DNA from: Salaquimonas sp.
Lineage (GTDB): Bacteria; Pseudomonadota; Alphaproteobacteria; Rhizobiales; Rhizobiaceae
Assembly (NCBI GenBank): GCA_049680405.1
Contig: JBAUHS010000010.1
Coordinates: forward strand, 3,777 to 67,776
Reading direction: 5' to 3'
DNA: 64,000 nt
Each line of letters opens with the position of its first letter. Position 1 is the first letter of the stretch. The notes under the pieces were generated by a model, which was not told where the DNA came from, made no database searches, and worked only from the letters and a program-made list of their open reading frames with translations. The position numbers were made by a program, and so were the translations under genes. Shown piece after piece: positions 8,684-61,273 of the stretch.

Positions 8684-8719
8684 GAGGTGTAGAAAACGCG
8701 CTTGTTCAGGATAGGACTT

Positions 8720-8815: not shown

Positions 8816-8887
8816 AGATGACAGTTACATAACCCCTTGTGAGAATGAGTTCAAGTTTACTGTAATATTATGTAGCATAACAGCCTA

Positions 8888-35662: not shown

Positions 35663-35831
35663 CCCGCCGGGCCTTGAGTGCTTTGATAAGCATATCATGG
35701 GAGTTTGCCTTGAATTGATTCTGGGTTTCGAGTTTGATCTTTTTGCTCAACTTTCGTTCAGACATGAAACGAACAAGTTGACGCAACAAACCAAGAATAG
35801 AAGCCAATACCGATAGCCATGCGGGAGTCAT
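35595..35831 (-). CDS. i-spanin-like protein (N-terminal anchor plus charged helical tail)
   Basis: 78 aa. The hydrophobic N-terminus PAWLSVLASILGLL is followed by a K/R/E-rich helix. It starts 2 nt after the stop of the holin-like ORF. Confidence 0.4.
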   Translation of the reverse strand: MTPAWLSVLASILGLLRQLVRFMSERKLSKKIKLETQNQFKANSHDMLIKALKARRDVRASHSAKHSRDIAPDKLQDD

Positions 35832-35833
35832 TT

Positions 35834-36040
35834 TCAGGAAATGATATCGGTGGCCGAAAGGCGGCCATAAATGGCTAGCAAGGAACCAGCGGCTCCGACC
35901 AATTGAACCAATATGCTTGCCAGTTCAGCCTGGGCTGCCTGATCAATTGATATCCCAATTGTTGCAGACAGGGCAGCAGCCACTGCAATAAGTGAACCCC
36001 AAATGGTTTTCGATTCGTACCAGGGTTTTTCTTCAACCAT
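35834..36040 (-). CDS. Holin-like small membrane protein (two TM helices)
   Basis: 68 aa. The helices are TIWGSLIAVAAALSATIGI and LASILVQLVGAAGSLLAIYG, with short polar ends. It starts 25 nt after the g15 stop. Confidence 0.45.
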   Translation of the reverse strand: MVEEKPWYESKTIWGSLIAVAAALSATIGISIDQAAQAELASILVQLVGAAGSLLAIYGRLSATDIIS

Positions 36041-36065: not shown

Positions 36066-39000
36066 TTATTGAATTACGTTGAGTATTGTTTCCGGCCCTG
36101 AGCGGGAGCTGTTGGACAATTGAGATACGGCCAGAAAATATGCACTATCCAGCGCGCCAAGATCCTCCGAGCGATCTGTGTCAGAATAATTAAATTCAGG
36201 CGAAGTGGTGATTGTGGTTCTGATCTCCTGACCATCAGAATTTAAAACCCTGATGCGGTAACGCTCCAGTGTGAATTCGAGGGGAACTTCAGATACCTCC
36301 CAATTATCGCTATCGATGCGCGAACGCCTTATCCAAGAGAACTGGGAAAGCCCACTGTTTCTGGAGTGCCTCAAATGGCAAGGGCTTAAAGGCCTTGTGT
36401 TGATGCCCTCACAGACTGCCGTTTGTGTCACAAAAGTGCTATCTGAGAGATTGCTCCCAACAGGTCCAATTTTCCAATTTGTGAGCAACCCAACCTGGCT
36501 AAGGTTTTGAGTGACGGGCGTAATGGCCGCATCAAGCAGAACACCTGACGCCCCCATAGATGCGCCAATCAAAGCTTCCGCTTCGGTTCCCAACTGGCCG
36601 CGTAGCAAACCTGATAACCGCCAAGCCTTGGGCGCAATGAGATCGGCTGATTTGAATTGGATAATCTCCCAGTTTTCATTATCGCTTTGGACAGCCAAGG
36701 CGTTTGATCCGGAAAAGACCAGGTTGTCATCAAGCGATTCAAATTCGGAACTTGGATCGGTAACGATCAATTCCAGTTTTGCACTATTGTCCCAACGCCC
36801 ATAAGGACCGGGCTGCAAATCTTTCGACAGAGCAAAAATGGTTGCAGGGTCTATGATGCTGCCTACCCTTTGATAACCTGTTTCAATCGGTGAATTGTAT
36901 ATTGCATATTCCTTTTGCCACCGTACCGCGCTTGCGGCGAAATAGAGTCTGGGCACCGCATCCACGGTGGATTGGTCCAATGGCAGGTTCATGATCAAGA
37001 CTTCAGGTGCAGCATTCCCTATCACAGGGTTCGTCGCCTTCAGCTCAGGCTTTACCCAAGGCGATGCCTCGTCGAAGTAGCCAAAGCCAATCGCCCCGAT
37101 TTCCCGTCCCATTCCATCTATGATGTTATTGACCTGGAACTTTTCCCGTCGATCAATCTCGACAATGTCGCCCAGCCCTAAAGCTATATATTTCCAGGGA
37201 AGTTGAAACTTCGCTGCGTCCCTTGCCAGCCAAAAATCCCGAAGCCGGGCATTAGCCAACTTCATTGCACAAGCGCGATTTATCACTGATGACACTTCTA
37301 GCTTCACTTGACGGTCGCTTATCGTTTCGAGCCTTTTTGACGTCGAAGTAACTGTATCAAAGCCAGCATCAATGTCAGCGTGGGAGAGAATGATCTCCCG
37401 TGGCAGTTCGATTTCACTTTGGCGTGTAATAGACAGTTTGGATACGTCACCCTCTTGTATCATTTCGTCGGGAGATATCCTGACAACAGGACAGTAATCC
37501 TTACCGCTGAATACCAAAGAACCAGATTCTTCACTGACAGATATATTGTGCAATATCAGGACCGGCTCCAACGCAGACCGGATACTATTTTCGCCCGTTA
37601 CAACAAATCCATCAATATGGCCGTCCACTTTGCAAATAGGCTCTTCAAACTCGAAGTCCACAAAAAGCGCGCCGATAAGATCGTTGACCGGACATGTACC
37701 CAGACGTCCATTTAGCCAGTGGCCACGATACCAGTTTTCCCCATCGGACCACCCATCAAGGTTGTGGGGGAAAATCGGATAAGGTCGAGCATCCCAGGTC
37801 CACAGAAAAATATTGTCTGGTGAAACCATCCTTTGTAGATAGATGCTAGACATCGGGTTTACGTTGTCTTTGTCCGAATTGCTCTCGGACCAGTACTCCA
37901 GATGAGCCTGATTATAGCGCAGCGCAATCAGATCATCTCTACCTCCTTTGGAAAACCAGGGTGTGCCTGCTTCCGAAGACTTTGCGTCAATAAACAAATT
38001 GGGCTGATTTGCACCTCTGTCAATTGCCGGGCATCCCAGTTCAGTAAACCAGATGGGTTTGCTTTGTGGAACCCAATCTGTTGGCGTAGAAGAGCGAACA
38101 CCACCTTGCCTTTCGTGATGGGGATTGGCCCACCAGTTCTTCAAATCCTTGTAGGCCCAAACCCACTTCTCGCCACTTCCATCTGTGATGGGCGTTTGAA
38201 CCTGGTTCAAGCGTGCCATTTCATCATTGTAATACCAATCGAATCCTTCGCCACCGCTGATATTTGACTTCAAATAATTAGTGTCAAAAATCGAACTGAA
38301 TTCCGGCTGGGACGGATCAAGAGAGAAAGACCAATTGGCCAATGGCATATAATTGTCTATGGCGACGGCATCGATTGCCGATGAGGCCCAAAGCGGATCA
38401 AGATTGAAATAGACATCATTGTCAACATTCCCGGGGTGATACCCGAAATACTCGCTCCAATCGGCAGCATAACTGATTTTCGTTTCTGGCAACAAAACCG
38501 AACGGCAATCCGTTGCCAGTTGAACCAAGCCATCCACAAAGGGAAAAGCATCCTGATCATCCCGTACGCTGGTCAGACCGCGCATTTCAGAGCCGATCAA
38601 AAACGCATCAACCCCACCAGCTGCCTCGCACAAATGGGCATAATGTAAAATCATCCGCCGGTACGACCATTCTTCCGGGCCCGAGTAGTCAATCTTCTTG
38701 CCAGAAATTGAATAGTCATCCAATGCTGCCTGACCAAGGAATGCTTCAATCTGGTCATGCGCCAAGCTTGTCTGATCAACAGAAGATGCTTTTCCAATTG
38801 CCGGATGACAGGTTACTCGCCCGCGCCACGGATAAGGCGATTGTTGGGTGCCACCATAAGGATCAGGTAACGCGTTCCCAGCTTTAATATCCATCATCAG
38901 GAATGGATATAATGTCACCCTTAGACCTCGCGCCTTCAGATCGGCGATGGCGTCAATAACACTGTTATCAGAGGGGCTACCACCATAAGCGGGCAAGCCA

Positions 39001-39932
39001 TTTGCGGAGGTAACGATATTGGCGTCTTTGCGATTCAATCCAGACACTTTCCAGGATTTTCGTGCGTTGTCCTTGTGAGCCACTCTAGGCTCCACACTGC
39101 AGTTATCTGCCCTCAAATCAGTGCCGAACCAGGCCACTATCAATGATACATTTTCAAGATTTGGACACAAGGCCTGCAGTTCATCGATAGACGCTGCCCA
39201 GTCAGATTTGGCTATAAGGTTATGGCGATTTTCAGTTGTATCGCGTAGACTATGTATCTCCGATGAATAGCCAAATTCTGTTGCTCCCGGAATAACCGTG
39301 ATAGAACGTATTTGTTTATCAATAGCGGCTACCGAACGAATAATTTCAAAACTGACATGTGGGATCCTGTTGCCGAAATCTCCAAGGGGAAAGCGCTCGA
39401 AAACAACATAAGCAGTACCGCGAAAAGCAGGTGTTCTTCCGAAACCTTGTTTAGCCTCAATCAGAGGGTCAGGTAGTTGATCTTGTGTCCCAGTATGCTT
39501 TCTGATTTGGAATTTGGTTTGGTCAATTTCTTTTCCGTCAGCCCAAATTCTGCCAATATGACTGATCTCGCCTTCACAAATACCAATTGCAAAATTGCCA
39601 TAGTAACTGAAACTTTCACTTGATACAGATGGCCCGCCTTTTCCGCCTTTTTTTGAGACCGAGCGAACCTCTTCAAAGCGGGTTGCCCAAATCAGTTGGC
39701 CACCCATGCGAGTGCGCCCGTATACCCTTGGGACGACAGCACCGTCTGCAGCGGTCACGAACCGGCTATCTTCCAGACGACCACCACGAATGACCTGATC
39801 TTTTGTAAAAAGTTTTTGGTCGACTGCATAACCGGCTGCCGCTCCAACGGCTCGCCCAACTGCAGCGCCAACAGGTCCGCCTATCGCTCCGCCGATGGCC
39901 GCGCCAACGACTTGAAGTACAACTGTTGCCAT
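36066..39932 (-). CDS. GTA g15-type baseplate/host-specificity protein (glycoside hydrolase/phage-tail family, 'megatron')
   Basis: 1288 aa. The Gly/Ala-rich N-terminus MATVVLQVVGAAIGGAIGGPVGAAVGRAVGAAAGYAVDQ is followed by the PRVYGRTRMGGQLIWAT block conserved in RcGTA gp15 homologues. It is the last large gene of the cluster. Confidence 0.9.
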   Translation of the reverse strand: MATVVLQVVGAAIGGAIGGPVGAAVGRAVGAAAGYAVDQKLFTKDQVIRGGRLEDSRFVTAADGAVVPRVYGRTRMGGQLIWATRFEEVRSVSKKGGKGGPSVSSESFSYYGNFAIGICEGEISHIGRIWADGKEIDQTKFQIRKHTGTQDQLPDPLIEAKQGFGRTPAFRGTAYVVFERFPLGDFGNRIPHVSFEIIRSVAAIDKQIRSITVIPGATEFGYSSEIHSLRDTTENRHNLIAKSDWAASIDELQALCPNLENVSLIVAWFGTDLRADNCSVEPRVAHKDNARKSWKVSGLNRKDANIVTSANGLPAYGGSPSDNSVIDAIADLKARGLRVTLYPFLMMDIKAGNALPDPYGGTQQSPYPWRGRVTCHPAIGKASSVDQTSLAHDQIEAFLGQAALDDYSISGKKIDYSGPEEWSYRRMILHYAHLCEAAGGVDAFLIGSEMRGLTSVRDDQDAFPFVDGLVQLATDCRSVLLPETKISYAADWSEYFGYHPGNVDNDVYFNLDPLWASSAIDAVAIDNYMPLANWSFSLDPSQPEFSSIFDTNYLKSNISGGEGFDWYYNDEMARLNQVQTPITDGSGEKWVWAYKDLKNWWANPHHERQGGVRSSTPTDWVPQSKPIWFTELGCPAIDRGANQPNLFIDAKSSEAGTPWFSKGGRDDLIALRYNQAHLEYWSESNSDKDNVNPMSSIYLQRMVSPDNIFLWTWDARPYPIFPHNLDGWSDGENWYRGHWLNGRLGTCPVNDLIGALFVDFEFEEPICKVDGHIDGFVVTGENSIRSALEPVLILHNISVSEESGSLVFSGKDYCPVVRISPDEMIQEGDVSKLSITRQSEIELPREIILSHADIDAGFDTVTSTSKRLETISDRQVKLEVSSVINRACAMKLANARLRDFWLARDAAKFQLPWKYIALGLGDIVEIDRREKFQVNNIIDGMGREIGAIGFGYFDEASPWVKPELKATNPVIGNAAPEVLIMNLPLDQSTVDAVPRLYFAASAVRWQKEYAIYNSPIETGYQRVGSIIDPATIFALSKDLQPGPYGRWDNSAKLELIVTDPSSEFESLDDNLVFSGSNALAVQSDNENWEIIQFKSADLIAPKAWRLSGLLRGQLGTEAEALIGASMGASGVLLDAAITPVTQNLSQVGLLTNWKIGPVGSNLSDSTFVTQTAVCEGINTRPLSPCHLRHSRNSGLSQFSWIRRSRIDSDNWEVSEVPLEFTLERYRIRVLNSDGQEIRTTITTSPEFNYSDTDRSEDLGALDSAYFLAVSQLSNSSRSGPETILNVIQ

Positions 39933-40381
39933 TATGCAGATATGTCCTTTGCGGGAACGGGAAACTCAAAGCAACCTACAATTCGTGGGCGCCAATGATT
40001 GCCAAGAGATGATTGAATGACACCAACGCGCTCATAGGCATGAACGAAGGTGTTCTCGCTCATCAAAATGCCAATATGTTTTGCCGGTAAATTAGATTGC
40101 CAGCGAAACAGAATTGCTCGTCCGATGGCAAACTCTTGCGCTGGAATCATGTGTTCATGCGCCGCAGCGAACAAGTGTTCTTGGCTATCGGCCTCACCCC
40201 AATCGGCAGAATACGCAGGAAGCTTTTGAGGTTCGCAGCCATAGAGACGGCGCCAAACGCCTCGTAGCAATCCCAAGCAATCACAACCAACTTGTTTTTT
40301 GGAAGCCTGATGACGATAAGGCGTACCGATCCACTCCCGGCATTCCGCCAAGATGATCTCAGTAGTTAAATCTGTGTTCAC
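39932..40381 (-). CDS. GTA g14-type NlpC/P60 cell-wall peptidase
   Basis: 149 aa. The catalytic Cys context GCDCLGLLRGVW and a downstream His. The gene junctions on both sides overlap. Confidence 0.85.
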   Translation of the reverse strand: MNTDLTTEIILAECREWIGTPYRHQASKKQVGCDCLGLLRGVWRRLYGCEPQKLPAYSADWGEADSQEHLFAAAHEHMIPAQEFAIGRAILFRWQSNLPAKHIGILMSENTFVHAYERVGVIQSSLGNHWRPRIVGCFEFPVPAKDISA

Positions 40382-41274
40382 GGGACGAGTGGCCCTCCAT
40401 CCATTTGATCTGAGTTATTTGCATAGCTCATTGCAAAGTCAGTTCCTGGAAGATGAGGAAAGCCTCTAAAATTGATAGTATTTGCAAATTTGGACTGACA
40501 GGTTTTAAGCGTTTTATCGCAACCGGGCCGAACGGTGATTTCATCTCCGATGCCAACGCTATGGTAAGCTCCAGACCACATAGACAACAAAACTTCATTG
40601 GTCGATGGGCCACGTTTCGTACTCGCAACTATCTCAATTGACTTGCCTTGGTTGGTGCCGGATTGAAATGTCAGCTTGCCCCCGGAAAACCAGTCATCCT
40701 GAAAACCGTCAAGTCCCGTGACGATCAATTGGTCCTTGTTCAAAACCTTAGAAACAACCGCTTGAACGCGAAAGCTCCCTTCAACATCAATCCTGCAATT
40801 TGCATCACCAAGTTTCGCGCTGCAGCGTCGGTCAAAGCGGCGCATTTTGGTTTGGTCAAGTTTGGCGGACAAGGATTTCAGCTCAGCTTTGAACACGCCA
40901 TCACTAAGTGATATCTCACCAAGCAAATAAGTTCCCATTAGAACCCTTTGCTCTGGTTGAGACCAGTTCACAACATAATGCCGAATGGACGCATTGTCAT
41001 AGACCCTTGTCGCAATATCCTCATCTGTGATCCTGTCAGATTGCAGGGCGCCCAATATTTCGTGATTGTCGGGAGTAAGGTTGTTTTGCATTTCAACCTG
41101 GCTGGCTTCAAATCCTGAACCCGCCTCGAAAACTACATCATCAAATTCGATATCAAGATCATGATCGGTAAATCCGAGGCTCGAGCCGTTTGTTAGCACA
41201 ATCTGCCAGCAGTTACTGAGCGTGATACATTCTGAATCCAGATGTGCTTGGAATTCGTTAGATATGGTTCTCAA
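40378..41274 (-). CDS. GTA g13-type hub protein (DUF2163 / BR0599 family)
   Basis: 298 aa. The N-terminus CWQIVLTNGSSLGFTDHD and the C-terminal FRGFPHLPG pattern are typical of phage BR0599/DUF2163. Position between g12 and g14. Confidence 0.85.
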   Translation of the reverse strand: MRTISNEFQAHLDSECITLSNCWQIVLTNGSSLGFTDHDLDIEFDDVVFEAGSGFEASQVEMQNNLTPDNHEILGALQSDRITDEDIATRVYDNASIRHYVVNWSQPEQRVLMGTYLLGEISLSDGVFKAELKSLSAKLDQTKMRRFDRRCSAKLGDANCRIDVEGSFRVQAVVSKVLNKDQLIVTGLDGFQDDWFSGGKLTFQSGTNQGKSIEIVASTKRGPSTNEVLLSMWSGAYHSVGIGDEITVRPGCDKTLKTCQSKFANTINFRGFPHLPGTDFAMSYANNSDQMDGGPLVP

Positions 41275-41921
41275 ATGACAATCTCCACCAAAGGAATGGA
41301 TGCAATTTCCCCAGCAATAAAATTCGTCATGCTTGCGGTAATTTCATCGGTCTCAAACCTAACTGGCACGTCAAACTCAAAGCCTGCATAAACGCTCTCG
41401 TTCAAAAGCGGCTGTTTACCAGTAAGGAACGCAATTTGGCCCGAAGTGGCATCCACAGTAAAATCCTGGCCTTCAACTTTCTGGATACCCCCAACAGAAA
41501 CAGAAACCGTTCCCTCCACTGGCTTGCGGATAGGCCTTTGCCATTTACCATCCCCGGAACCATAGGACTTGAGAAGCTGGAAAGAAGTTTTAGTTCCATC
41601 CCCGACACCAATCAGCTGATCGATCGGCGATATTTCAGATTTGGGAGAACAGGATTTATGATCGACCGGATCCTTGAAACGAAAACCGAATAATCTGCCG
41701 CGGCGCTCTTCGAAGAAAGCGATCACCTCAGCAATGTCATCAAGAGTCTTAACCCCATAACCGGCATTGTAACGTCGCCGAGAATTGGCCCAGCGGGCAT
41801 TACGTTGCTCCCGGCCGGAGCCCAATGTCACAATTTCGGTTCTGCGTTGAGGCCCGCCCGTTGCGCCGAGGGCAATGTCTGTTGGAAAGCGAGTCTCATG
41901 AAACGAGTTCAATGCTGTCAT
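41271..41921 (-). CDS. GTA g12-type distal tail protein (DUF2460)
   Basis: 216 aa. The N-terminus FHETRFPTDIALGATGGPQRRTEIVTLGSGREQRNARW is the DUF2460/TIGR02217 signature. Confidence 0.85.
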   Translation of the reverse strand: MTALNSFHETRFPTDIALGATGGPQRRTEIVTLGSGREQRNARWANSRRRYNAGYGVKTLDDIAEVIAFFEERRGRLFGFRFKDPVDHKSCSPKSEISPIDQLIGVGDGTKTSFQLLKSYGSGDGKWQRPIRKPVEGTVSVSVGGIQKVEGQDFTVDATSGQIAFLTGKQPLLNESVYAGFEFDVPVRFETDEITASMTNFIAGEIASIPLVEIVI

Positions 41922-41938
41922 CTCTTAATGCCTTTGGT

Positions 41939-42526
41939 TTAGAGTTTTCGCTGTCCGCGTTGAACTGTTCGAGCCAACATAGCCGTCAACTGCCCCTCAG
42001 ATCGTTTGAAGCTTGCTGCATCACTGGATTGAACATTGAAGACCACGTTTACCGGCGCTGCCGATGCTTTGGCAGCAACGCCCAATTTGCCGTCTGCTCC
42101 ACGGGTAAGCGGCATAACGGCTTCTGCGCCTGCTTCGCCCATCAAGCCTGTGCCCCCAGCAAAGGAAAACAGGCTGGGTGAGGAAACCACGCCGCCTTTT
42201 GCAAACGGAATTGGGCCTGCATTAGAATAGGCTCCACCCTTTGCATTTGGAACTGGCGCTGCAAAACTTGCGAGCACATTATTCATCAAACTTGAGATCG
42301 TGTTTTCGATTGGAGCAAACGCCTTGTTGAGTGCCATGGTTGAAAGACGCATGGCGATGGAGCGCAGCGTCTCCTCAAAACTCTTTCCCGTTATTGCAGC
42401 TGACTTGAGGGTGGAAGTAAATATCCTGCCAAAGTCCTTGGTACTGTCCTTTGCCGCATTCATAGCAGCGTTAAACGAAGACAGGTCGGCATTTACCGAA
42501 ACTGTTGTTTGGGGCGATTTATCCAA
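41939..42526 (-). CDS. GTA g11-type short tail tape measure protein
   Basis: 195 aa, Ala/Gly/Ser-rich. The motif GEAGAEAVMPL is typical of tape-measure C-terminal regions. Position between the chaperone ORFs and g12. Confidence 0.75.
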   Translation of the reverse strand: MDKSPQTTVSVNADLSSFNAAMNAAKDSTKDFGRIFTSTLKSAAITGKSFEETLRSIAMRLSTMALNKAFAPIENTISSLMNNVLASFAAPVPNAKGGAYSNAGPIPFAKGGVVSSPSLFSFAGGTGLMGEAGAEAVMPLTRGADGKLGVAAKASAAPVNVVFNVQSSDAASFKRSEGQLTAMLARTVQRGQRKL

Positions 42527-42527
42527 T

Positions 42528-42728
42528 TTAATATCCTTTGGTATCGGGATAGGCGTTGATTATGTCTTGCAGCTGCGATCTGGACATCGCAGTACGAGGC
42601 TGGTCCGGAAATTTTGCTTTAATTAAAAGGTTGAATTCCGGTAAGGTCAGCTGCCAAAACTCTTTGGGTTTCATTCCCAACACGCCAAAGGCAAAATTTG
42701 CTGCATTGCTCCACCAAAGCCCCCGCAT
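42528..42728 (-). CDS. GTA g10.1-type protein (rcc01693 / TIGR02216-like, tail assembly chaperone-associated)
   Basis: 66 aa. The FGVLGMKPKEFWQLTLPEFNLL pattern. Its ATG directly follows, in frame, the TGA of the upstream ORF. Confidence 0.7.
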   Translation of the reverse strand: MRGLWWSNAANFAFGVLGMKPKEFWQLTLPEFNLLIKAKFPDQPRTAMSRSQLQDIINAYPDTKGY

Positions 42729-43049
42729 TCAGCTGTCGCTTGTGCCAAAGCTGGCAATCAGTAAATCAGCAACAATTCTTGCAAAGCCTGCAGCACCATC
42801 AGTACATCTCATTTCTGAAATGTCTTGCCGGGAAATGTCATGGCCCCCGCCTTTCAGGCCAGCTTGAATGATGGCCATCAGATCAGCAGATGAAAACTTT
42901 CCCGCAGAAAGAATCTCAGCAAGCTTGGGTAGATCATCGACATGAAAATAGTCTTCAAGCTCTGCCAATGCGCCAAGGGTCAAGCAAAGTGTCCATTGCC
43001 GATCATTAAGTTCAACCGTGATTTCGCCTCTACGTGGGTTGGCCATCAA
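42729..43049 (-). CDS. GTA g10-type protein (gene transfer agent family / tail assembly chaperone-like)
   Basis: 106 aa. NPRRGEITVELNDRQWTLCLTLGALAELE is typical of the GTA family protein that follows the tail tube gene. Confidence 0.7.
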   Translation of the reverse strand: MMANPRRGEITVELNDRQWTLCLTLGALAELEDYFHVDDLPKLAEILSAGKFSSADLMAIIQAGLKGGGHDISRQDISEMRCTDGAAGFARIVADLLIASFGTSDS

Positions 43050-43459
43050 GTGATCACCTGAAAAGTGATGGAGCCTGCAGATTCCAAAACAATTTCGAAG
43101 GTCACCTCGCCATTGTGTTGACCGGCATATTCCAGCGCTGTTATCTGAAACAAACCTTCCAGAGCTCCAAATTCAGGAATGACCACCTGCCAGTTTTTTA
43201 TATCACCGGCAAAGAAGACATCTCTGATCCGTTCATCCGATGCTGCATCCTTGAAAATACCGGAACCATTGATTGAGGCACGGCGTAGGCCAGAGCCCCC
43301 CAGAAGCTCCCGCCATCTACCGGCTGATTCAGAATCGGTGATATCAACGGTTTCCGTGTTGAATGAAATCTGCCGGGACCGAAGTCCGGCCACGGTTACA
43401 AAACCATTGGGAGCATCATCGACCTTCAACAGAAGGTCTTTACCTTTTTGAGCGCTCAT
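43046..43459 (-). CDS. GTA g9-type major tail (tube) protein, TP901-1 family
   Basis: 137 aa. The GKDLLLKVDD...FVTVAGLRSRQISFNTETVDITD pattern. Confidence 0.85.
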   Translation of the reverse strand: MSAQKGKDLLLKVDDAPNGFVTVAGLRSRQISFNTETVDITDSESAGRWRELLGGSGLRRASINGSGIFKDAASDERIRDVFFAGDIKNWQVVIPEFGALEGLFQITALEYAGQHNGEVTFEIVLESAGSITFQVIT

Positions 43460-43486
43460 TGTTATTCCTTTGAAAATTATTGCAAA

Positions 43487-43897
43487 TCATTCGGTTATGG
43501 GTTCGGTGACTGCTCTGAATGTAGAACTTGCCGTGAAAAACCTGTTGTCTTTCGTGCGATTGCTGGTGGTTGTTTCCCATGTGAAATTGATCAGGTGGTG
43601 GCCATCAATCAGTTTTGGCATTGCTTTAAGGGCAGCTTTTACGGCATCAACTATCACTCCGACTTCCTTGCGCCCTTTCGCAGAAGACCAGGCGATAATT
43701 TCAATGAGATGCTCTTCTCCCGCTTCTGTGCCAGTGCTCCAATCGTCACTCTCAATTTTGCTAAACACCAGATAAGGAAAAACTGAATGATCTGGAACGC
43801 CGTCAAAGACCTGCCGACCACCAAGAATTGAAAGCAGGGGTTGATCACCTATCAAAGTATCGAAAATCGCCTTTTGGACTGAAATGGCCGCGTTCAT
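43487..43897 (-). CDS. GTA g8-type tail terminator/completion protein (DUF3168)
   Basis: 136 aa. DUF3168-like pattern VFDGVP....PYLVF...SDDWST...GEEHLIEIIAWS. Confidence 0.75.
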   Translation of the reverse strand: MNAAISVQKAIFDTLIGDQPLLSILGGRQVFDGVPDHSVFPYLVFSKIESDDWSTGTEAGEEHLIEIIAWSSAKGRKEVGVIVDAVKAALKAMPKLIDGHHLINFTWETTTSNRTKDNRFFTASSTFRAVTEPITE

Positions 43898-44070
43898 CTT
43901 TGTTGCTTCCTGAATTTTGAATCACCGGAAAATTTCTTGTTTCTGGCCTGTTTCTTCCGACTTTCATCACGTGTATTTCTGTGTTCAGCAGGAATATCCG
44001 TTTTTGGGAAAAGTGCTTTTTGCAAGGTTACCGAAAGGCTTTGGGTTGTGAATTCGACTGAAAACTTCAT
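43894..44070 (-). CDS. Unannotated 58-aa ORF between g7 and g8 (below the ORF-track length cutoff)
   Basis: My own minus-strand translation is MKFSVEFTTQSLSVTLQKALFPKTDIPAEHRNTRDESRKKQARNKKFSGDSKFRKQQR. The ATG overlaps the g7 stop (ATGA) and the stop overlaps the g8 ATG (ATGA). It exactly fills an otherwise empty 169-nt gap. Confidence 0.35.
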   Translation of the reverse strand: MKFSVEFTTQSLSVTLQKALFPKTDIPAEHRNTRDESRKKQARNKKFSGDSKFRKQQR

Positions 44071-44402
44071 TCCGTCTCTCTAACTTCACAAAGAAAGTAT
44101 CTTCCACTTTCATCATGGTCCGTGACAACATCGATCAAGAAAGTTCTGGAGCCAGAGACAAATCTCATACCCGGCTCCACCCCCGGTCTCTGGCGAATGT
44201 AAATCCAATGGGTGTGCTCGGTTCTGTTGCTATCTGCCTCTGCAACCAGAATTCCTTTGATCGGAATCAGTTTTGCCCACACATCAAATTGTGGGATCCA
44301 GGTTTCACTTACTCCGCCGCAGCCATCTTCTGACTCTGTTGGAGCTTCAAGCGACAATCTTACATTAAAATGACCGGACTGAAGAAATTGATGAACTGTC
44401 AA
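44067..44402 (-). CDS. GTA g7-type head closure / head-tail adaptor protein
   Basis: 111 aa. TIGR01563-like pattern WAKLIPIKG....A........THWIYIR......GMRF....RTF.I. Overlaps g6 by 4 nt. Confidence 0.8.
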   Translation of the reverse strand: MTVHQFLQSGHFNVRLSLEAPTESEDGCGGVSETWIPQFDVWAKLIPIKGILVAEADSNRTEHTHWIYIRQRPGVEPGMRFVSGSRTFLIDVVTDHDESGRYFLCEVRETE

Positions 44403-44968
44403 AGCCGCACCCTCCGGAAGGGAGCAATAAGCGTTTGAAACCCTTGCGGCTCATTGGCAGGCTGCTGGTCAATAGTGACGGCACCGCGAAACTCATAATT
44501 ATGGGCGACCAGCAGCAGTAGCGCCCGACGCAAACTGTCAGGAACATCTATTCCGGTATTGCCAAACCCAACCACAAGGTCGATCTCTACACCGTTAATT
44601 TTGCGTTGCGTATGAACTGCTGTCTTCACCAGCAAGCGAGAGGGAGTTGAAATTCTGTCTAGCTCCAGAGCTCCCAGCGGTACGCTTTCGGGCGAGCCAT
44701 TTGCATCATAGATGCGCATATCAAGAACCCCCTGAACAGGTCCTTTGCCCAATCTGAATTGATTGCTGTCTGAAAAGCCGTCAAAATATTCGCGCCAGAT
44801 CTGGGTGATGAGACTGACGCCAAGAATGACCTCAAGGTGATTCACAGCAGCCTTGATCAATCCAGTGAGATAATCATCATCATCTGAAGTCTCGATGCGC
44901 AAATGGCTTTTTACTTCGGCCAGAGTCAGCGGCAATGCAGCTGGTGGAGTGATTAAAACGGCAACCAT
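44399..44968 (-). CDS. GTA g6-type head-tail connector (phage gp6-like)
   Basis: The track ORF (to 45229) runs into the capsid gene. The start was reassigned to the Met at 44968, giving MVAVLITPPAALPLTLAEVKSHLRIETSDDDDYLTGLIKAA, the gp6-like signature. Confidence 0.75.
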   Translation of the reverse strand: MVAVLITPPAALPLTLAEVKSHLRIETSDDDDYLTGLIKAAVNHLEVILGVSLITQIWREYFDGFSDSNQFRLGKGPVQGVLDMRIYDANGSPESVPLGALELDRISTPSRLLVKTAVHTQRKINGVEIDLVVGFGNTGIDVPDSLRRALLLLVAHNYEFRGAVTIDQQPANEPQGFQTLIAPFRRVRL

Positions 44969-44995
44969 AAATTCTTCCAAATTGAGGGATGAATG

Positions 44996-45070
44996 AAAAG
45001 GCCCCACCCGGTTTAAAATACCGGATGGGGCCGCGATACACGCCGGCAAGGCACGAGGAGGCACCTTGCC
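44996..45070 (-). terminator. Tandem hairpins after the capsid gene; the distal one is a strong intrinsic terminator
   Basis: Minus strand, hairpin 1 is GGCAAGG-(12 nt)-CCTTGCC (45045-45070). Hairpin 2 is GGCCCCATCCGG-TATTTTAAA-CCGGGTGGGGCC (45000-45032): 12 bp with one G:U pair, followed by TTTTCATTC. Confidence 0.7.
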
Positions 45071-45089
45071 AAGAGCCGGGAGGAGAACT

Positions 45090-46424
45090 CTAAGCGGTAC
45101 CGAACTTGATGAGCTTGATGGCGTCAAAGTCTTGAATGCCGCCACCCACTCGCTTCGTGGTGTAGAAAAGAACATAAGGTTTGGCTGAATAAGGATCCCG
45201 CAATACGCGGACACCAGCACGATCAACAATCAAATAACCCCGATTGAAGTCCCCAAAAGCGATGGACAGGCTGTCTGTTGCTATATCCGGCATGTCTTCA
45301 GCCTCCAGAACCGGGAAGCCCATCAACATGGCTTTTTCACCAACTGTTGCAGGTGGTTGCCATAGATAATTGCCATCGGCGTCTTTCAGTTTACGAATGT
45401 CGGCCTGCGTGCGGCGGTTCATCAACCAGTTGGCATTTTGCCGATAGCCTGCCTTGAGAGAATAGATGCTTTCGACCAGGACATCAGAAGGGTCGGTGCT
45501 AACAAAATCACCATCACCGCCTGTTGGCGTATACCCAAGATTTCCCCAGCTCCAACTTGTTTCAGCAACTACCGGATTATCCAAAATACCCTTTGGTTTA
45601 TTCACCCCATCGCCGCTGATAAATGCGGCGCTTTCCTGCTCGGCAAAGGCCGTTTCAACTTCCTGCGCAAGCCAGGCATCAATATTGATGGCTGCATCAT
45701 CCAACAGCGCCGAAGTCGCCGCCGGCATTGCATACAGTTCCATTGTTGGGAATTGCAACTCAGATAACGACGGTGCTGCGGTTTGCGGTCGAAGATCAGT
45801 TTCTGAAACCCATCCTGTGGCGGGGCCTGTCATGGCAAATGGTTTCTTGTACATCGACGAAGATACCGTGATGACTGAAGCCACTGAACGAATAGGGGAA
45901 ATCATCGATAGACGACGGCCAATTTCTGAAGCCGTTTCGTCCGGCACCAAATACCCGCCATCGGGGTCAGAAGATGAGGACATTGCCTTTTCTTCAAAAC
46001 GTCTCAGATCGTTCTCATTACCTCTTCGCACATAACCATTGAAGGCATTCTTATGCTCGATTGAGGCAATTGAGTAGCCTTTTGAACTTTCCGAACCTGG
46101 CCTGCGGCTTTTCAGAAACAGCTGATCCATCAAATGTTTCTGCTGATCGAGCGCGGAGTTGATGCGGTTCATTTTCTCAGTGGTCACAACATCCGCACCT
46201 ACGCGGGTTTCGACTTGCGCCAAACGCTCGTCATTGGCTTCGCGAAAAGCCTCAAAAGCGATCATGAAGTCATCAAACGCTTCAGCAACTTCGCTGGCAT
46301 TGCCAACTGCAACTGTCGGAGAAAGCGTGGTTTCCATCAGATCGTTTTTACGCGAAAGCGCTTTGGTTTCAGGCGCGGCTTTTCTGCCGCCGGGTTTCCC
46401 CGTTCTGTTTGTCAGTTTATTCAT
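45090..46424 (-). CDS. GTA g5-type major capsid protein, HK97 family
   Basis: 444 aa. N-terminal delta-like region with FEAFREANDERL, and an HK97-fold core (...GGYLVPDE..., FPTMELYAMP, ...VDRAGVRVLRDPYSAKPYVLFYTTKRVGGG). Confidence 0.92.
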   Translation of the reverse strand: MNKLTNRTGKPGGRKAAPETKALSRKNDLMETTLSPTVAVGNASEVAEAFDDFMIAFEAFREANDERLAQVETRVGADVVTTEKMNRINSALDQQKHLMDQLFLKSRRPGSESSKGYSIASIEHKNAFNGYVRRGNENDLRRFEEKAMSSSSDPDGGYLVPDETASEIGRRLSMISPIRSVASVITVSSSMYKKPFAMTGPATGWVSETDLRPQTAAPSLSELQFPTMELYAMPAATSALLDDAAINIDAWLAQEVETAFAEQESAAFISGDGVNKPKGILDNPVVAETSWSWGNLGYTPTGGDGDFVSTDPSDVLVESIYSLKAGYRQNANWLMNRRTQADIRKLKDADGNYLWQPPATVGEKAMLMGFPVLEAEDMPDIATDSLSIAFGDFNRGYLIVDRAGVRVLRDPYSAKPYVLFYTTKRVGGGIQDFDAIKLIKFGTA

Positions 46425-46439
46425 GGTTTTTCCTATGAT

Positions 46440-47135
46440 TTAGGGATGAAAAATGCTGGCAGCTGCTCTGATGCGACTTGCCAACTGGCTTTTCCCTGTC
46501 ACCGCATCGCGCTGGCTTAGGGCATGGCGATAACCTTTGGTAACAACCAATCGAGCATCGCCTCGCGACAGACCGGCATCCCGCACGAGCCATCGCTCAA
46601 ATTCTCTTATTGTAGGGTTCTGTTTGGCTTGCCACGCAACACATGAAGGCATGCTTTTTACGGACTTTATCCGGGCGCTTTCCTGCATGGGAAATGTAAC
46701 GACAGATATCTCCCATAAATCCGCTTCTAGGATGCGTCTCGATCCGGTAAGTGGGTCCTGGCGGGACCGAATGGTTCGAAACCCGATTGACAGACCGTCA
46801 ACTGCTCCAGTTCGCATGAGCTCAAGAACCTCTCGGCCTTTCACCGCCCCGGTGGTAATCTTACCACGAACCTCCAAACCATGCTCGGTCTCAGATATGG
46901 CCTCCCAAACTCCGATCGGCTCATCAGGATTGTGCTGAAAAAGCATACGAATATTGGATGCTCCGCGCTTTGCCAAGGAAGCTGAAAATGCACCCGGCGC
47001 TACAATGTCATTGCCCAGATCCACCTCATTATACACGCTCGCATAACCAGAAAAATTTCCGTCCAATCGAACCTGCTCAAGATTGCTCGACACAAATTTC
47101 GTCTCACGCAATTTCGCCAAACTATTGCTGTTCAT
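46440..47135 (-). CDS. GTA g4-type prohead protease, HK97 family
   Basis: 231 aa. FSGYASVYNEVDLGNDIVAPGAF...MLFQHNPDEPIGVW...GLSIGF motifs. Confidence 0.9.
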   Translation of the reverse strand: MNSNSLAKLRETKFVSSNLEQVRLDGNFSGYASVYNEVDLGNDIVAPGAFSASLAKRGASNIRMLFQHNPDEPIGVWEAISETEHGLEVRGKITTGAVKGREVLELMRTGAVDGLSIGFRTIRSRQDPLTGSRRILEADLWEISVVTFPMQESARIKSVKSMPSCVAWQAKQNPTIREFERWLVRDAGLSRGDARLVVTKGYRHALSQRDAVTGKSQLASRIRAAASIFHP

Positions 47136-47156
47136 TCACAACTCCATATTCATCAA

Positions 47157-47501
47157 TCAGGATGTTTGATTGGGTAGTTTAATTTTATTTCCAAGCGCTC
47201 CGCGAAGGAGGCCCAAAGCCCACCATGCGCAAAGGCTGGCGGCTGTTGCCCCCATCAAGGCTATTTCGAATTTTGACAATTGATCGCTTACATCGAAATA
47301 GGATGCGATCTTGGCACCCGATGTCGGGCCAAAACTGATTCCAAGGATCACGCCGGTGATAAACCGAATTGCCGCTTCACGGCGGCCCTTTGGCAGCACA
47401 TAAGCAATTGAAATCGCTGAACCGAGAACTGCGCCAACACCTTTGGCAACCCAAAGCCAGGCGGCTTCGGGCAGATCGTAAAAGGCAATGTTACCGGTCA
47501 T
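47157..47501 (-). CDS. Small three-TM membrane protein in the g3.5 position (portal-protease spacer)
   Basis: 114 aa from the ATG at 47501, which overlaps the portal end by 11 nt. The hydrophobic helices are AAWLWVAKGVGAVLGSAISIAYVL, AIRFITGVILGISFG and FEIALMGATAASLCAWWALGLL. Confidence 0.5.
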   Translation of the reverse strand: MTGNIAFYDLPEAAWLWVAKGVGAVLGSAISIAYVLPKGRREAAIRFITGVILGISFGPTSGAKIASYFDVSDQLSKFEIALMGATAASLCAWWALGLLRGALGNKIKLPNQTS

Positions 47502-48720
47502 CGAAAGCTTGCCCCGTCCGGCTACCTTGGCCAATCGCTCCATAACCGGTGGCAAGTCGTTTTTCGTCTGGTGTCAGAAAATCTGCTTCACTCAACCGTT
47601 TCCATAACGCATCGCGGTCTACAGAAAGTGCCTCAATCCGGTCCCGATCGATATCAAGGCGTAAACAGTGCGACCAATTGGGGCCAAGCCAGTTTTGAAT
47701 TGCCGTAACAACCCGCGCCACCATTGGTAAAATTGTTTGACGCCATAAAGCCAGGTTCGCTTCACGATAATTGGAATAGGTATTGTCCCCAGGAATTCCG
47801 AGCAGCATTGGCGGCACGCCGAAGGCAAGAGCAATATCGCGGGCCGCAGCGTTTCTTGCCTCGATGAAATCCATATCTTTCGGACTGAAACCCATTTGCT
47901 TCCAATCCAAGCCTCCCTCAAGAAGCATGGGTCGGCCTGCCCTACTCGCTCCTGTATATCCTTCTTCAAGTTCGACCTTGAGGCGTTCAAATTGTTCATC
48001 AGTCAGGTTGGTGCTTTCCCCCGAACCATAGACCAATGCACCGGACGGTCTTGCTGAATTATCCAACAGTGCCTTGTTCCATTTGCTCGCAGAGTTATGG
48101 ATATCAAGGGCCATATGGGCAGAAGCGAGAGGCGATACTCCCTCAAAATCATCTAGTGGATTGTAAAGTGCCAGATGCAGAATTGGGGAATGAACATCAG
48201 ACATTTCGTATCGAGTCTTGCGACCATTCACGCTGTAATCATAGGCTATCGGCCATCCGCTTTCATCGCGAATGCTTTCCATTCGGTCTGCCCGAAGCGC
48301 ATAAAGCTCTTTTGGAAAGCCATCCAGTTCGCTCTGGGACAAATAGGCATTCCCGCAAATCAACAGGCTCGAGAAAACGGCGTCAAAAAGCCCCTGGCCG
48401 CTCTGTCTGGCATTGGGTCTATTAAGCAAATCCAGCAATGGATGGGTATCCATCTCATCGTCGCCATCATAGGCTAACAGAGGAAGTGCCGCTGCTGACT
48501 CCGACAATAATCGGATACAGCGGTGAACAATGGGATTCTTGATATATCCTTCCCGCGCCAACCCACCATAGCTCGCATCACACCAGTTCGCCTCACCTAA
48601 TCCATGAAGGGCTATCAGCGGATTAAAGGCAGACTTCCGTTCGAGAGCCGAGGCGGTTTTGACGGTCAAAGGCCAAGTCTTATCGCTACCCTGGCGAAGC
48701 CAGCGCATAATTTTGCTCAT
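47491..48720 (-). CDS. GTA g3-type portal protein, HK97 family
   Basis: 409 aa. Pattern NPIVHRCIRLLSESAAALPL...GNAYL... and the C-terminal DEKRLATGY. Confidence 0.92.
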   Translation of the reverse strand: MSKIMRWLRQGSDKTWPLTVKTASALERKSAFNPLIALHGLGEANWCDASYGGLAREGYIKNPIVHRCIRLLSESAAALPLLAYDGDDEMDTHPLLDLLNRPNARQSGQGLFDAVFSSLLICGNAYLSQSELDGFPKELYALRADRMESIRDESGWPIAYDYSVNGRKTRYEMSDVHSPILHLALYNPLDDFEGVSPLASAHMALDIHNSASKWNKALLDNSARPSGALVYGSGESTNLTDEQFERLKVELEEGYTGASRAGRPMLLEGGLDWKQMGFSPKDMDFIEARNAAARDIALAFGVPPMLLGIPGDNTYSNYREANLALWRQTILPMVARVVTAIQNWLGPNWSHCLRLDIDRDRIEALSVDRDALWKRLSEADFLTPDEKRLATGYGAIGQGSRTGQAFDDR

Positions 48721-48747
48721 TTGAATTCCAATATTATTAGTGGTGAA

Positions 48748-50109
48748 TCAGGCTGACCGAATTCTCGGATTGCCCCGTGAACTTAATGCCAGTTCATGAA
48801 GTGCCCAGACCATTGCATCTAGCCGGTCGGGAGATTTCCCGTTGGCCAAACCATCCGGTCCGAAGTCACACAATTGATCTTCAAGTTCAGGAAATGAACC
48901 CACGTGCCGAACTCTTCCTTTTGCATATAACATTGCGATGGGTTCAGCCCGAAGCCATTTACCCCGGCTAGCCCGAACCGCCCTGATAGGCAATGAGGGA
49001 TCTGCCATACCAAGAACAGATTTTACCATGTCGCCGCCCTGATTAACTTCGGCAATCACGCAGTCTGCTTCCAGACGATGATAAAGCGCTGTTACCACGC
49101 TTGCCCATTTTTCAGGTACAACTCCTTGAATGGTAACATCTGCCAACAGATAGCAAATTCCGTCACCGTCTTTTCCAGCGGCAACAATGCCGCAGGCATC
49201 CGACTTTGCGTTCGAACTGGCGGGAGGATCAACAGCTATGATAATTCGCTTCAAAGGCGGATGGTTTTTTACCCGCAATTCATCAAGTTGAGAACGCTGC
49301 CAAAGGGCGCCTTCCCGATCTTCAATAATTTCTCCATTCAACTCCTGGCGACCCAAGCGAGTTCCTGCATATTCATCTGTAACATAGGCAAGAAAACCCG
49401 GAGCGAGAAACCCGCTATTCACAAATGTGGAAGAACGGGTCACTGACGTTGATTTTTCTTTCAGCATTTTCTTCAGAAAAGCCAATGGCTTAGGTGTTGT
49501 TGTAATCATCTGCCGCGGCATTGACCCAAGGCGCATGCAAAATTGCAGCATGTCAAATGTCGTTTCAAGATGTCTCCACTTCACAACTTCGTCGCACCAG
49601 GCTGCCCCAAATTGACTACCCCTCAAGCTTTCAGGATCGTTAGCCGAAAAGACTTGGCCTATCGTGCCATTTGGCCATTCCAACTGTCTGCGGGATGCGT
49701 TCCATTTAGGACGCTTGTCTTTACTGTGAATAGCCATCAGGCCGGATTCACCCTCGATCATGACGGCGAGCGCATCCTGGTAGGTTTCGCCAATGAGTGC
49801 GACGCGGCCCGCCGCATCGCCAAGGGCATAATGATCTTTCAGAATAATAGACTTTAGCCATTCCGCGCCGGACCTTGTTTTTCCGGCACCCCGGCCACCC
49901 ATCAGCAACCATTTTCGCCATTGGCCCGTAGGCGGGATCTGCGGCTCATGGGCCCATGCCCACCAGGTTCGTGACAGGTTCTCTTTTTCATGCGGGTTTA
50001 GTCTGCTCAGAAACTCCTGTCTTTGCTCCGCCGTTCGCAAGGTTCGCAATTTGCTTTTCAAGCGCGTTATGGAATTCCAAAGTATCTTGTGGGTGGAGAC
50101 TGCCAGCAT
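48748..50109 (-). CDS. GTA g2-type terminase large subunit
   Basis: 453 aa. WWAWAHEPQIPPTGQWRKWLLMGGRGAGKTRSGAEW (Walker A) and a C-terminal nuclease domain. The start is uncertain (ATG at 50109 or a TTG at 50061/50049/50040). Confidence 0.92.
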   Translation of the reverse strand: MLAVSTHKILWNSITRLKSKLRTLRTAEQRQEFLSRLNPHEKENLSRTWWAWAHEPQIPPTGQWRKWLLMGGRGAGKTRSGAEWLKSIILKDHYALGDAAGRVALIGETYQDALAVMIEGESGLMAIHSKDKRPKWNASRRQLEWPNGTIGQVFSANDPESLRGSQFGAAWCDEVVKWRHLETTFDMLQFCMRLGSMPRQMITTTPKPLAFLKKMLKEKSTSVTRSSTFVNSGFLAPGFLAYVTDEYAGTRLGRQELNGEIIEDREGALWQRSQLDELRVKNHPPLKRIIIAVDPPASSNAKSDACGIVAAGKDGDGICYLLADVTIQGVVPEKWASVVTALYHRLEADCVIAEVNQGGDMVKSVLGMADPSLPIRAVRASRGKWLRAEPIAMLYAKGRVRHVGSFPELEDQLCDFGPDGLANGKSPDRLDAMVWALHELALSSRGNPRIRSA

Positions 50110-50521
50110 CCGTAATTTTTTCCAGATTTGCGATCATTTCCTCGATGGTCAAGACTCCCTTTGCAATCGCCAGAACATTTCTGGTTTTCGTTTGGGCATT
50201 GCCTTCATTTTCTTCAGAAGCATTAAAACCCGTTTGTTTTTTCAACATCCGTTTCAAAAAATTCAAAATCTGTTTCGCTGTTCGTGCATTGGCCAAACGA
50301 AGATCGTCTTGGGATAAAGTCTTCGGAGTTGTTCTACTGCGAGAACTTGATCTATTTCTTTTTCCGGACTGCCATACTCCATCACAAGACCTTTCGATGA
50401 TCTCGGGTAAACCAATTCCCGACACTACCGAAATTTGCTCCAAGTCCAAACCATGCTTTTCATATAATGCGCGTAAAATTTGCCAACGCTCATCAGATGC
50501 ACGGGATTTATCCCCATTCAT
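49988..50521 (-). CDS. GTA g1-type small terminase-like protein (HTH N-terminus)
   Basis: It is the first gene of the cluster. From the ATG at 50521, the 177-aa protein begins with an HTH-like segment ERWQILRALYEKHGLDLEQISVVSGIGLPEIIERS, then a basic linker and a helical C-terminus. The call rests mainly on position. Confidence 0.55.
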   Translation of the reverse strand: MNGDKSRASDERWQILRALYEKHGLDLEQISVVSGIGLPEIIERSCDGVWQSGKRNRSSSRSRTTPKTLSQDDLRLANARTAKQILNFLKRMLKKQTGFNASEENEGNAQTKTRNVLAIAKGVLTIEEMIANLEKITDAGSLHPQDTLEFHNALEKQIANLANGGAKTGVSEQTKPA

Positions 50522-50625
50522 TTGGAAACCTTTATGATTGGCATTTTGAATTTGAAAATTTGCGCAAAAGCATTTTGAGGGGCGAAGAAGCTTCAATTAA
50601 TGCCCACTTCTTCGACCATGAACAG

Positions 50626-50654
50626 ATACTATCAAATCACCGTCTCGGTGTCAA
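50626..50654 (-). promoter_or_regulatory. Candidate sigma70-type promoter for the GTA cluster
   Basis: The minus strand reads TTTTTATTGACA-CCGAGACGGTGATTTGA-TAGTAT. The -35 TTGACA lies at 50649-50654, the spacer is 17 nt and the -10 TAGTAT lies at 50626-50631. An A/T-rich UP-like stretch precedes it. It lies in the ycgN-g1 spacer. Confidence 0.45.
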
Positions 50655-50673
50655 TAAAAATATGAATATATTC

Positions 50674-51141
50674 CTAATTATTTTCATCTTCATCGGGCCA
50701 GTTGACCAAATGGTCTTCATAATCCTCAGGTTTTAACCCTATTTCGGGTACAATTCGCCCCAAAACAGAGATGCCGGCCTTATGGACCGATTGAGGATCT
50801 CCAGAGACCAGAGGATGCCATGGCCGCAGATCCTTACCTTCTTTGACAAGACGATAGCCGCAGGTGGGCGGAAGCCAGTCAATCTCAGCAACTTTTTCCG
50901 GTGTGAGGTCAATGCAATCCGGGACAACATCAAACCGGAAATCGTAGCTTTTGCATCGACAGGTTTCACAATCGAGTTCGCTGCAGGCAATATTCGTGTA
51001 GTGAATCTCGCCAGTATCCCAGTCTTCAAGCTTGTTGAGGCAGCATTTCCCACAGCCATCGCAGAGAGATTCCCATTCCTGGGAGCTCATTTCTTCAAGT
51101 TTTTTGGTTTTCCAGAAAGGCGCGTTCAAATTATGCCCCAA
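50674..51141 (-). CDS. ycgN: YcgN-family (UPF0260) cysteine-cluster protein
   Basis: 155 aa. [33 protein letters not shown]...CRCKSY is typical of YcgN. Confidence 0.8.
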
Positions 51142-57394: not shown

Positions 57395-57405
57395 GAGATA
57401 CTCCT

Positions 57406-61146: not shown

Positions 61147-61273
61147 GCTCTCCCATAAAAGGACTATATTCCTATTATGGGAATTGCAACCTTGAAATGC
61201 ATATCAAATGGAGAGATTTTCCAGCCAAAAAGGATTCTCTTAAAAAACTCAATGACTTAATGCGGTAATCAGA

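Follow-up and report, generated by a model that had tools for sequence, protein, structure and literature searches.

Clusters of genes resembling RcGTA, the gene transfer agent (GTA) of Rhodobacter capsulatus, were reportedly described as 'large clusters' by Shakya in 2017 and Kogay in 2019 (both cited in PMC9638019). Membership is defined by at least nine homologues of the RcGTA head and tail genes, colinear and on one strand. Here we describe a cluster with these properties in a 64,000-nucleotide stretch of DNA (the window; G000:C10:3777-67776, on the 70.6-kb contig C10) from a marine-sediment member of the Hyphomicrobiales. Its genes follow the same 17-gene order, g1 to g15, as RcGTA (rcc01682-rcc01698, with further genes at separate loci).

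In Hyphomicrobiales (Rhizobiales), the large clusters occupy a stable chromosomal region and descend vertically, according to the available passages of PMC5721377 and PMC9638019, and genes of this type were found in 60% of 730 Hyphomicrobiales genomes (PMC9638019, in the part available). Such clusters are well described in print, and the present locus adds one more to them. We consider it highly probable that it is a vertically inherited and intact RcGTA-type locus, as judged from its genes, with putative particles, DNA packaging and transfer. Its chromosomal position is fixed, its gene order is that of the family, and its genes are intact. The nearest named relative is a Salaquimonas metagenome-assembled genome (MAG).

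The head-tail cluster and its chromosomal position

Between 50521 and 36066 on the minus strand, all listed open reading frames (ORFs) were present and open, as the first-pass annotation of this DNA had proposed. It had also named a colinear series g1-g15 with g3.5, g10.1 and a short tape measure of 195 amino acids (aa), and the family searches bear this out: 16 of the 17 named genes matched their expected Pfam and NCBIfam families, in order, while g1 was assigned by position only. The proposed count of 17 to 18 genes stands for the 17 named ones; the eighteenth ORF has no detectable relative. Likewise, the proposed extent (36066-50521) holds the head-tail cluster, and the unit itself continues to 35438 with three more genes, d1-d3. 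The head and tail genes, with their overlaps in nucleotides (nt), are the following:

49988..50521, minus strand: g1, helical protein of 177 aa at the place of the small terminase; 122-nt out-of-frame overlap with g2
48748..50109, minus strand: g2, large terminase (Terminase_6N, E 2.6e-26; Terminase_6C, E 1.6e-22)
47491..48720, minus strand: g3, HK97 portal (Phage_portal, E 4e-85; TIGR01537)
47157..47501, minus strand: g3.5, DUF6107 membrane protein (DUF6107, E 2.2e-27); ORF open to 47555
46440..47135, minus strand: g4, prohead protease (Peptidase_S78, E 9e-31; TIGR01543)
45090..46424, minus strand: g5, HK97-fold major capsid protein (Phage_capsid, E 1e-91)
44399..44968, minus strand: g6, head-tail connector (TIGR02215, E 2.7e-50, residues 88-276 of a long ORF)
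44067..44402, minus strand: g7, head closure protein (Phage_HCP, E 1.4e-19)
43894..44070, minus strand: 58-aa ORF of uncertain status between g7 and g8; 4-nt ATGA-type overlaps at both ends
43487..43897, minus strand: g8, tail completion protein (Tail_completion_gp17, E 8e-27)
43046..43459, minus strand: g9, tail tube protein of TP901-1 type (Phage_tail_2, E 4e-45; TIGR02126)
42729..43049, minus strand: g10, tail assembly chaperone (Phage_TAC_11, GTA-gp10, E 8e-26)
42528..42728, minus strand: g10.1 (Phage_TAC_6, E 2.4e-14; rcc01693 family at 25.8 bits, under its cut-off)
41939..42526, minus strand: g11, short tape measure, 195 aa (NF058675 RcGTA_tape, E 2.7e-47)
41271..41921, minus strand: g12, distal tail protein (TIGR02217, E 4.5e-86)
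40378..41274, minus strand: g13, baseplate hub (TIGR02218, E 7.6e-83)
39932..40381, minus strand: g14, NlpC/P60 peptidase (TIGR02219, E 1e-48)
36066..39932, minus strand: g15, megatron, a multidomain baseplate protein (NF048004, 1576 bits vs. a cut-off of 800)

The likely starts of g3.5 and g6 are at 47501 and 44968. The capsid protein matched the Rcc01687 chain of the solved RcGTA particle (E 3.4e-98), and the megatron, present in a single copy in the genome, matched the solved Rcc01698 chain over its full length (E 1.6e-279). When compared to phage tape-measure profiles of 900-1900 positions, g11 matched only their C-terminal ends. By coordinates, the junctions comprise seven overlaps of 1-11 nt and nine gaps of 0-27 nt, in agreement with the tight spacing noted before, plus two outliers: the 122-nt g1/g2 overlap and a 121-nt gap after g5.

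The host genome has 3.22 Mb in 177 contigs, 48.95% G+C (GC) and 99.67% completeness by marker genes. The cluster does not stand out in base composition (GC 0.490 vs. 0.4895 for the genome). On its downstream side lie an OmpR-type response regulator, a histidine kinase and CcmI/E/F/H, and on its upstream side a YcgN-like protein, PBP1A and a DUF1214 protein; except for the DUF1214 protein, these are the conserved neighbours that the first reading had pointed to. It had also reported no integrase, tRNA or flanking direct repeat. We found no tRNA on the 70.6-kb contig, no match to tyrosine or serine recombinases (PF00589, PF00239) on it, and no direct or att-like repeat bracketing the cluster. 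Among the part of the contig ORFs that was scanned, no replication, recombination or lysogeny genes adjoin the cluster, and the flank ORFs were housekeeping genes. The features of an integrated prophage (integrase, att repeats, and replication or lysogeny genes beside the structural genes) were thus not found here.

A capsid search with one genome per species retrieved at least 596 relatives, and the best 80 were all Hyphomicrobiales-type records. Many of these 80 loci, from many Hyphomicrobiales genera, have the same flanks, with the response regulator downstream and PBP1A/DUF1214 upstream. Within the same GTDB family, the megatron was matched in 122 of 151 sampled genomes (109 over the cut-off; the sample includes one unpublished genome, G078), and among 14 control genomes in Caulobacter only. 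The capsid tree had 64 rows, for which 31 of the 80 named loci were hand-chosen and five class-sample rows were dropped for low coverage. It placed the window as sister to the Salaquimonas MAG (Shimodaira-Hasegawa-like approximate likelihood ratio test, SH-aLRT, 100), inside a 40-row clade of chromosomal copies (support 98), with all six true-phage rows outside. This is the outcome that the first-pass annotation had set for a GTA, as opposed to grouping with phages. Synonymous sites are saturated when compared to the nearest relative, and all frames are still open. The ratio of nonsynonymous to synonymous rates (dN/dS) was 0.07-0.41 where computable (vs. L001 and L003, the loci of the two nearest relatives); most genes had a dS that was either saturated or impossible to compute, and we therefore retain just the qualitative observation.

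Two true phages, MW202777 and OP947159 (a Desulfofustis phage), share the terminase-to-megatron order with the window, with capsid identities of 48% and 42.5%, respectively, and a megatron identity of about 38%. They differ in having 45-46-kb genomes with DNA polymerase, helicase, recombinase, lysis genes and extra head genes. Their tape-measure genes span 2100 and 2097 nt (about 699 aa), against 588 nt (195 aa) here, so the window tape measure is about 3.6 times shorter. The two best matches in the phage collection, MW091529.1 and MW462191.1 (L081 and L082), are filed as bacteriophage. We rejected them as phages: they are bacterial contigs with the cluster between response-regulator/ccm genes and PBP1A.

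The first gene, g1, has positional homologues in 11 relatives with a common C-terminal EF-x3-LE-x-QIA-x-L motif. Its predicted fold (AlphaFold2, 12 sequences) is all-helical, with a predicted local distance difference test score (pLDDT) of 70. Seven named small terminases appeared among weak viral hits to this fold at E 0.4-1.1, above significance, and language-model neighbours included Terminase_5 clusters at 0.93-0.94, which we take as a lead only. The out-of-frame g1/g2 overlap (49988-50109 in the window) was also observed in L002, L003, L005 and L006, at 107-137 nt, and it keeps both frames: the g1 C-terminal motif and an N-terminal LWNS...L motif of g2.

Between g7 and g8, 34 of 62 relatives carry a family of small basic ORFs (MK-x-S-x-x-LT-x-D-G-L-V-R-A-L-R...) that is absent from the 17 RcGTA gene names. 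The 58-aa ORF of the window was tried as a member of this family and rejected (profile E 0.69, no detectable relationship); it has no family match in Pfam, NCBIfam or PHROG either.

Other observations concern the surroundings and the relatives. The junction of the ycgN-like gene with the GTA promoter is variable, as L001 (4760-5404) and L003 (5360-5980) carry an additional ORF there, about 210 aa long. Preceding the response regulator at 35141-35374 (minus strand), a 77-aa signal-peptide protein, detectable by tblastn in 23 of 50 relatives, seems to be part of the two-component operon and not of the GTA. Rfam had no match inside the cluster; a thiamine pyrophosphate (TPP) riboswitch lies at 8711-8822 on the minus strand (81.8 bits vs. 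a gathering score of 54.3). In a close relative, L002 (OZ244147.1; genome G011), g2-g9 and d1-d3 are kept, g10-g15 are gone and the megatron has no match genome-wide, which looks like a partly deleted GTA cluster. Another record, L072 (JAHREI010000009.1), is titled Bacillus subtilis and holds a Hyphomicrobiales-type GTA cluster whose identities to the window proteins come near those of a Pseudochrobactrum locus, so that the contig is probably a contaminant. Homologues of comEC and dprA are present in the host genome, and since these are common genes they add little to the case for a GTA.

Promoter palindromes, the candidate activator pair and the post-capsid hairpin

A gafYZ-like pair lies 9.4 kb upstream of the cluster, and a box type found at the promoter before g1 recurs before this pair. 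The regulatory features of the window are:

50624..50674, minus strand: promoter region before g1, promoter-like site 10/12, extended TG
50663-50674, minus strand: upstream box GGAATATATTCA, of GGAAT-N2-ATTCC type, just upstream of the promoter core
50624..50674, minus strand: promoter sequence, TTGACA, then the palindrome CACCG-AGA-CGGTG (50638-50654), then the -10-like TAGTAT
61161-61173, upstream of the gafY-like gene: box AGGAATATAGTCC, a close copy, 15 nt before the start codon
60700..61146, minus strand: gafY-like gene, 148 aa, DnaA domain IV, the second such protein (PF08299, 51.6 bits)
59898..60734, minus strand: gafZ-like gene, 278 aa, DUF6456, homologue of the C-terminal part of GafA (PF20057, E 1.9e-46)
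61732..62205, minus strand: mucR/ros-type regulator, upstream of the gafY-like gene (ROS_MUCR, E 3.9e-47)
59458..59874, plus strand: sufE, adjoining the gafZ-like gene, a synteny marker (SufE chains, E 4e-24)
44990..45032, minus strand: terminator-like hairpin in the g5-g6 gap, 13 pairs (10 G-C), then a T-run

About 90 nt around the promoter site are near-identical to L001, though the g1 proteins of the two loci are 32% identical. In 49 of 68 relatives, the 1500 nt before g2 contain TTGACACCG-N3-CGGTG with up to two mismatches, against a background of 19 matches in the other 2.6 Mb covered by the relatives' loci; one of the 49, L059, looks spurious, without the shared context. The exact TTGACACCG-N3-CGGTG form is found once in the window's own genome. 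As for the GGAAT-N2-ATTCC box, it was first noticed by eye, so the comparative counts are its real test. Allowing two mismatches, GGAATNNATTCC stands before TTGAC in 45 of 49 relatives (expected 0.014 per locus) and before the gafY-like gene in 28 of 29 (expected 0.12 per locus). The 10-mer TAGGAATATA has two occurrences in the genome, one at the gafY-like gene and one at the GTA promoter. By these counts (49/68 and 45/49), both palindromes offer concrete and testable candidate binding sites for a split GafA-type activator; the literature passages available to us contained no mapped GafA-type binding sites in Hyphomicrobiales.

The candidate activator pair itself is widespread. A gafZ-like match was present in 49 of 61 family genomes, and in 33 of these 49 it was within 50 kb of a megatron match on the same contig. 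A split gafA arrangement with mucR/sufE synteny is described for Hyphomicrobiales in the available part of PMC9638019, and the neighbourhood in the window agrees with it. The corresponding pair in Caulobacter is GafY/GafZ (PMC9632790, in part). Between the cluster and the gafYZ-like pair, at 56645-58752 on the minus strand, we observed genes for a DivJ/PdhS-like histidine kinase and for a protein with two PG_binding_1 repeats.

In the g5-g6 gap, 61 of 75 relatives have a G+C-rich hairpin measuring 8 bp or more, and 27 of 75 have a hairpin followed by at least five T in 9 nt. In Caulobacter, according to the passages of PMC11150451 that we could consult, GafY binds its own promoter and that of the cluster, and GafZ is an anti-terminator whose DNA element, a palindrome, lies between -35 and -10. 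On the model of Caulobacter and Rhodobacter, the GafY-like protein would bind GGAAT-N2-ATTCC at its own promoter and at that of the cluster, and the GafZ-like protein would load at CACCG-N3-CGGTG between -35 and -10. We infer from the Caulobacter case that the post-capsid hairpin may be an anti-termination target, where the GafZ-like protein would allow RNA polymerase to continue into the genes for the tail and for lysis.

A holin-like gene and a candidate spanin pair after g15

The three genes that extend the unit beyond g15 are:

35834..36040, minus strand: d1, holin-like, 68 aa, two hydrophobic stretches; starts 25 nt after g15
35595..35831, minus strand: d2, candidate i-spanin, 78 aa, hydrophobic at its N-terminus, then basic and helical
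35438..35662, minus strand: d3, candidate o-spanin lipoprotein, lipobox LLTSC; ORF open from 35698

The first of them, d1, matched phrog_34682 (holin; E 1.1e-10) and shares 38.7% identity with an annotated phage holin (E 2e-5). In 40 of the 50 relatives whose sequence reaches far enough past g15, it is the next gene, and it has a single copy in its own genome. Being small, with membrane helices and similarity to holins, it is holin-like, and pore formation by it is putative.

The candidate spanin genes are arranged as an overlapping pair: d3 starts inside d2, in another frame, with an overlap of 68 nt. This out-of-frame overlap, directly after the holin-like gene, was conserved in 8 of 8 loci. 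All four d3 proteins tested (that of the window and three homologues) matched phrog_1275, an Rz-like spanin family, at E 8e-7 to 9e-9, and the lipobox Cys, two further Cys and a P, D, H and N are invariant in the alignment of eight sequences. Homologues of d2 are found at the same place in seven relatives, with lengths of 69-89 aa; its neighbours in a protein atlas are leads only. A complex prediction for the periplasmic part of d2 with mature d3 scored 0.02 against a mark of 0.32, which is no evidence either way.

The pair is narrowly distributed. It was present in 6 of the 50 relatives with sequence after g15, plus L002, and all carriers fall within one 9-row capsid clade (support 91). In the 151-genome family sample, a d3 profile matched 13 genomes, 10 strongly and 3 weakly. 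Among the strong matches, six lie 400-650 bp downstream of the megatron, three are in genomes with no megatron match and one is on too fragmented an assembly; the weak ones lie away from the megatron. In the passages of the GTA literature that were consulted, no GTA-linked spanin was found; this survey was not exhaustive, and the supplements of PMC9638019 and PMC5721377 may show ORFs after g15.

There is no endolysin within the d1-d3 cassette. The only PF11860 muramidase of the genome, which also has a PG_binding_1 domain, is encoded on contig C2 between housekeeping genes and is a candidate endolysin. The GH108 and phage-lysozyme families had no match in the genome; the GH108 blank says little, because the GH108 control matched no control genome.

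Altogether, we propose that one marine sub-clade of Hyphomicrobiales retains, or has reacquired, a lysis cassette of phage type in cis (holin and overlapped spanins, transcribed with the tail genes). In the same proposal, the family-wide promoter with two palindromes provides the loading sites of GafY and GafZ, and the post-capsid hairpin acts as an anti-termination checkpoint. We regard the chances for and against this proposal as evenly balanced. Within the main reading, again by comparison with Caulobacter and Rhodobacter, small heads would take up pieces of host DNA, the 195-aa tape measure would set short tails, and release would depend on the holin, the unlinked muramidase and the spanin pair.

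Alternative readings and known systems

Several observations weigh against a functional GTA with its own lysis genes. The host is known from a metagenome bin only and the locus from its genes alone, and the literature passages available to us report no particle production by an RcGTA-type cluster of Hyphomicrobiales. At the level of single genes, g1 had no match in Pfam, NCBIfam or PHROG, nor did its fold at E <= 0.001 in Foldseek searches of PDB and BFVD; g11 scored 161 bits, under the curated NCBIfam cut-off of 220 bits (for a profile of 220 positions). No family match was retrieved for d2, and the hydrophobic N-terminus of its homologues has 14-20 residues, short for a membrane helix. At the regulatory level, no CtrA-type site (TTAA-N7-TTAA) was found in the window, where about one was expected. 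The 400 nt before the muramidase gene hold no GGAAT-N2-ATTCC-like box GGAATNNATTCC, and for this reason its link to the GTA is a guess.

The first-pass annotation had preferred a domesticated GTA to a decaying prophage, and the capsid tree, the conserved position and the lack of integrase and att site on the contig support that preference. We see little chance that the cluster is a cryptic, decaying remnant that merely seems complete. Its genes are phage-derived, the partial loss of g10-g15 in L002/G011 demonstrates that decay occurs in this lineage, and the cluster is known from its sequence alone. However, a remnant would hardly retain 17 undisrupted named genes when synonymous sites are saturated against the nearest relative, nor conserved promoter elements, in a position common to many genera and with the megatron in 122 of 151 family genomes. 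An active temperate or satellite phage is extremely improbable: it would explain why the structural order is that of the true phages MW202777 and OP947159, but the housekeeping flanks on both sides already contradict it, no replication, recombination or lysogeny genes adjoin the cluster among the ORFs scanned, the tape measure is far shorter than in those phages and the window capsid falls outside the true-phage rows.

An intact and selected particle locus could also serve mainly for something other than gene transfer, such as tailocin-like killing or the release of nutrients or DNA by lysis. This is unlikely, though less so than the two readings above. DNA packaging and transfer are here deduced from genes, and the locus has its own lysis genes, both of which would suit such a use. 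On the other hand, the terminase, portal and capsid are all retained and conserved, and a headless tailocin is disfavoured because it would not need them; moreover, the homologous clusters of Rhodobacter and Caulobacter do transfer DNA (PMC9632790, in part). A vertically inherited GTA locus of RcGTA type thus stays as the preferred reading.

When compared to the large clusters of Hyphomicrobiales, the window cluster is one of them and presents no essential difference; by itself, it is one more genome in a well-mapped family. Its lysis cassette and promoter architecture are modest variants. Some large clusters have homologues of rcc00171 and rcc00555 at their 3' end (PMC5721377 and PMC9638019, in part), and the passages available on these clusters mention neither a holin with a spanin pair nor promoter palindromes. 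The cultured relative Pseudahrensia aquimaris (locus L042) has the full arrangement, which makes the lysis and promoter questions testable.

Among phages, two-component spanins include a class with overlapped genes (the Rz/Rz1 type). The window resembles it in that the gene for the lipoprotein begins within that for a small membrane protein, out of frame with it, extends beyond it and neighbours the holin-like gene. It differs in the short i-spanin candidate (69-89 aa), in having no endolysin and in its attachment to a GTA.

RcGTA and the window share an activator of GafA type, and the window capsid and megatron match the solved RcGTA chains. The window tape measure is short like that of RcGTA, with a score under the curated cut-off of the RcGTA_tape profile. 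The single GafA protein of Rhodobacter corresponds to two genes in the window, whose host has 49% GC. The holin and endolysin of RcGTA lie together at another locus (PMC5721377, in part), whereas in the window the holin-like gene and the candidate spanins come after g15 and the muramidase alone is encoded elsewhere.

The GTA of Caulobacter crescentus (CcGTA; GafY/GafZ, IHF, terGTA) is like the window in its split GafY (DnaA domain IV) and GafZ and, from the available part of PMC11150451, in a palindrome between -35 and -10 and an internal terminator-like structure. The palindrome is GCGCCCG-CTGGCGC in Caulobacter and CACCG-N3-CGGTG in the window, and the terminator follows the first gene in Caulobacter, whereas the window hairpin follows the capsid gene. 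Lysis in Caulobacter proceeds by LypABC, with neither a holin nor an endolysin (PMC13236601, in part), unlike the window with its holin-like gene. The cassette bears on a question from the 2026 Caulobacter work, namely how GTAs of different lineages lyse their producers. If our proposal on lysis holds, it would be a third release arrangement, beside the unlinked holin and endolysin of RcGTA and the LypABC of Caulobacter.

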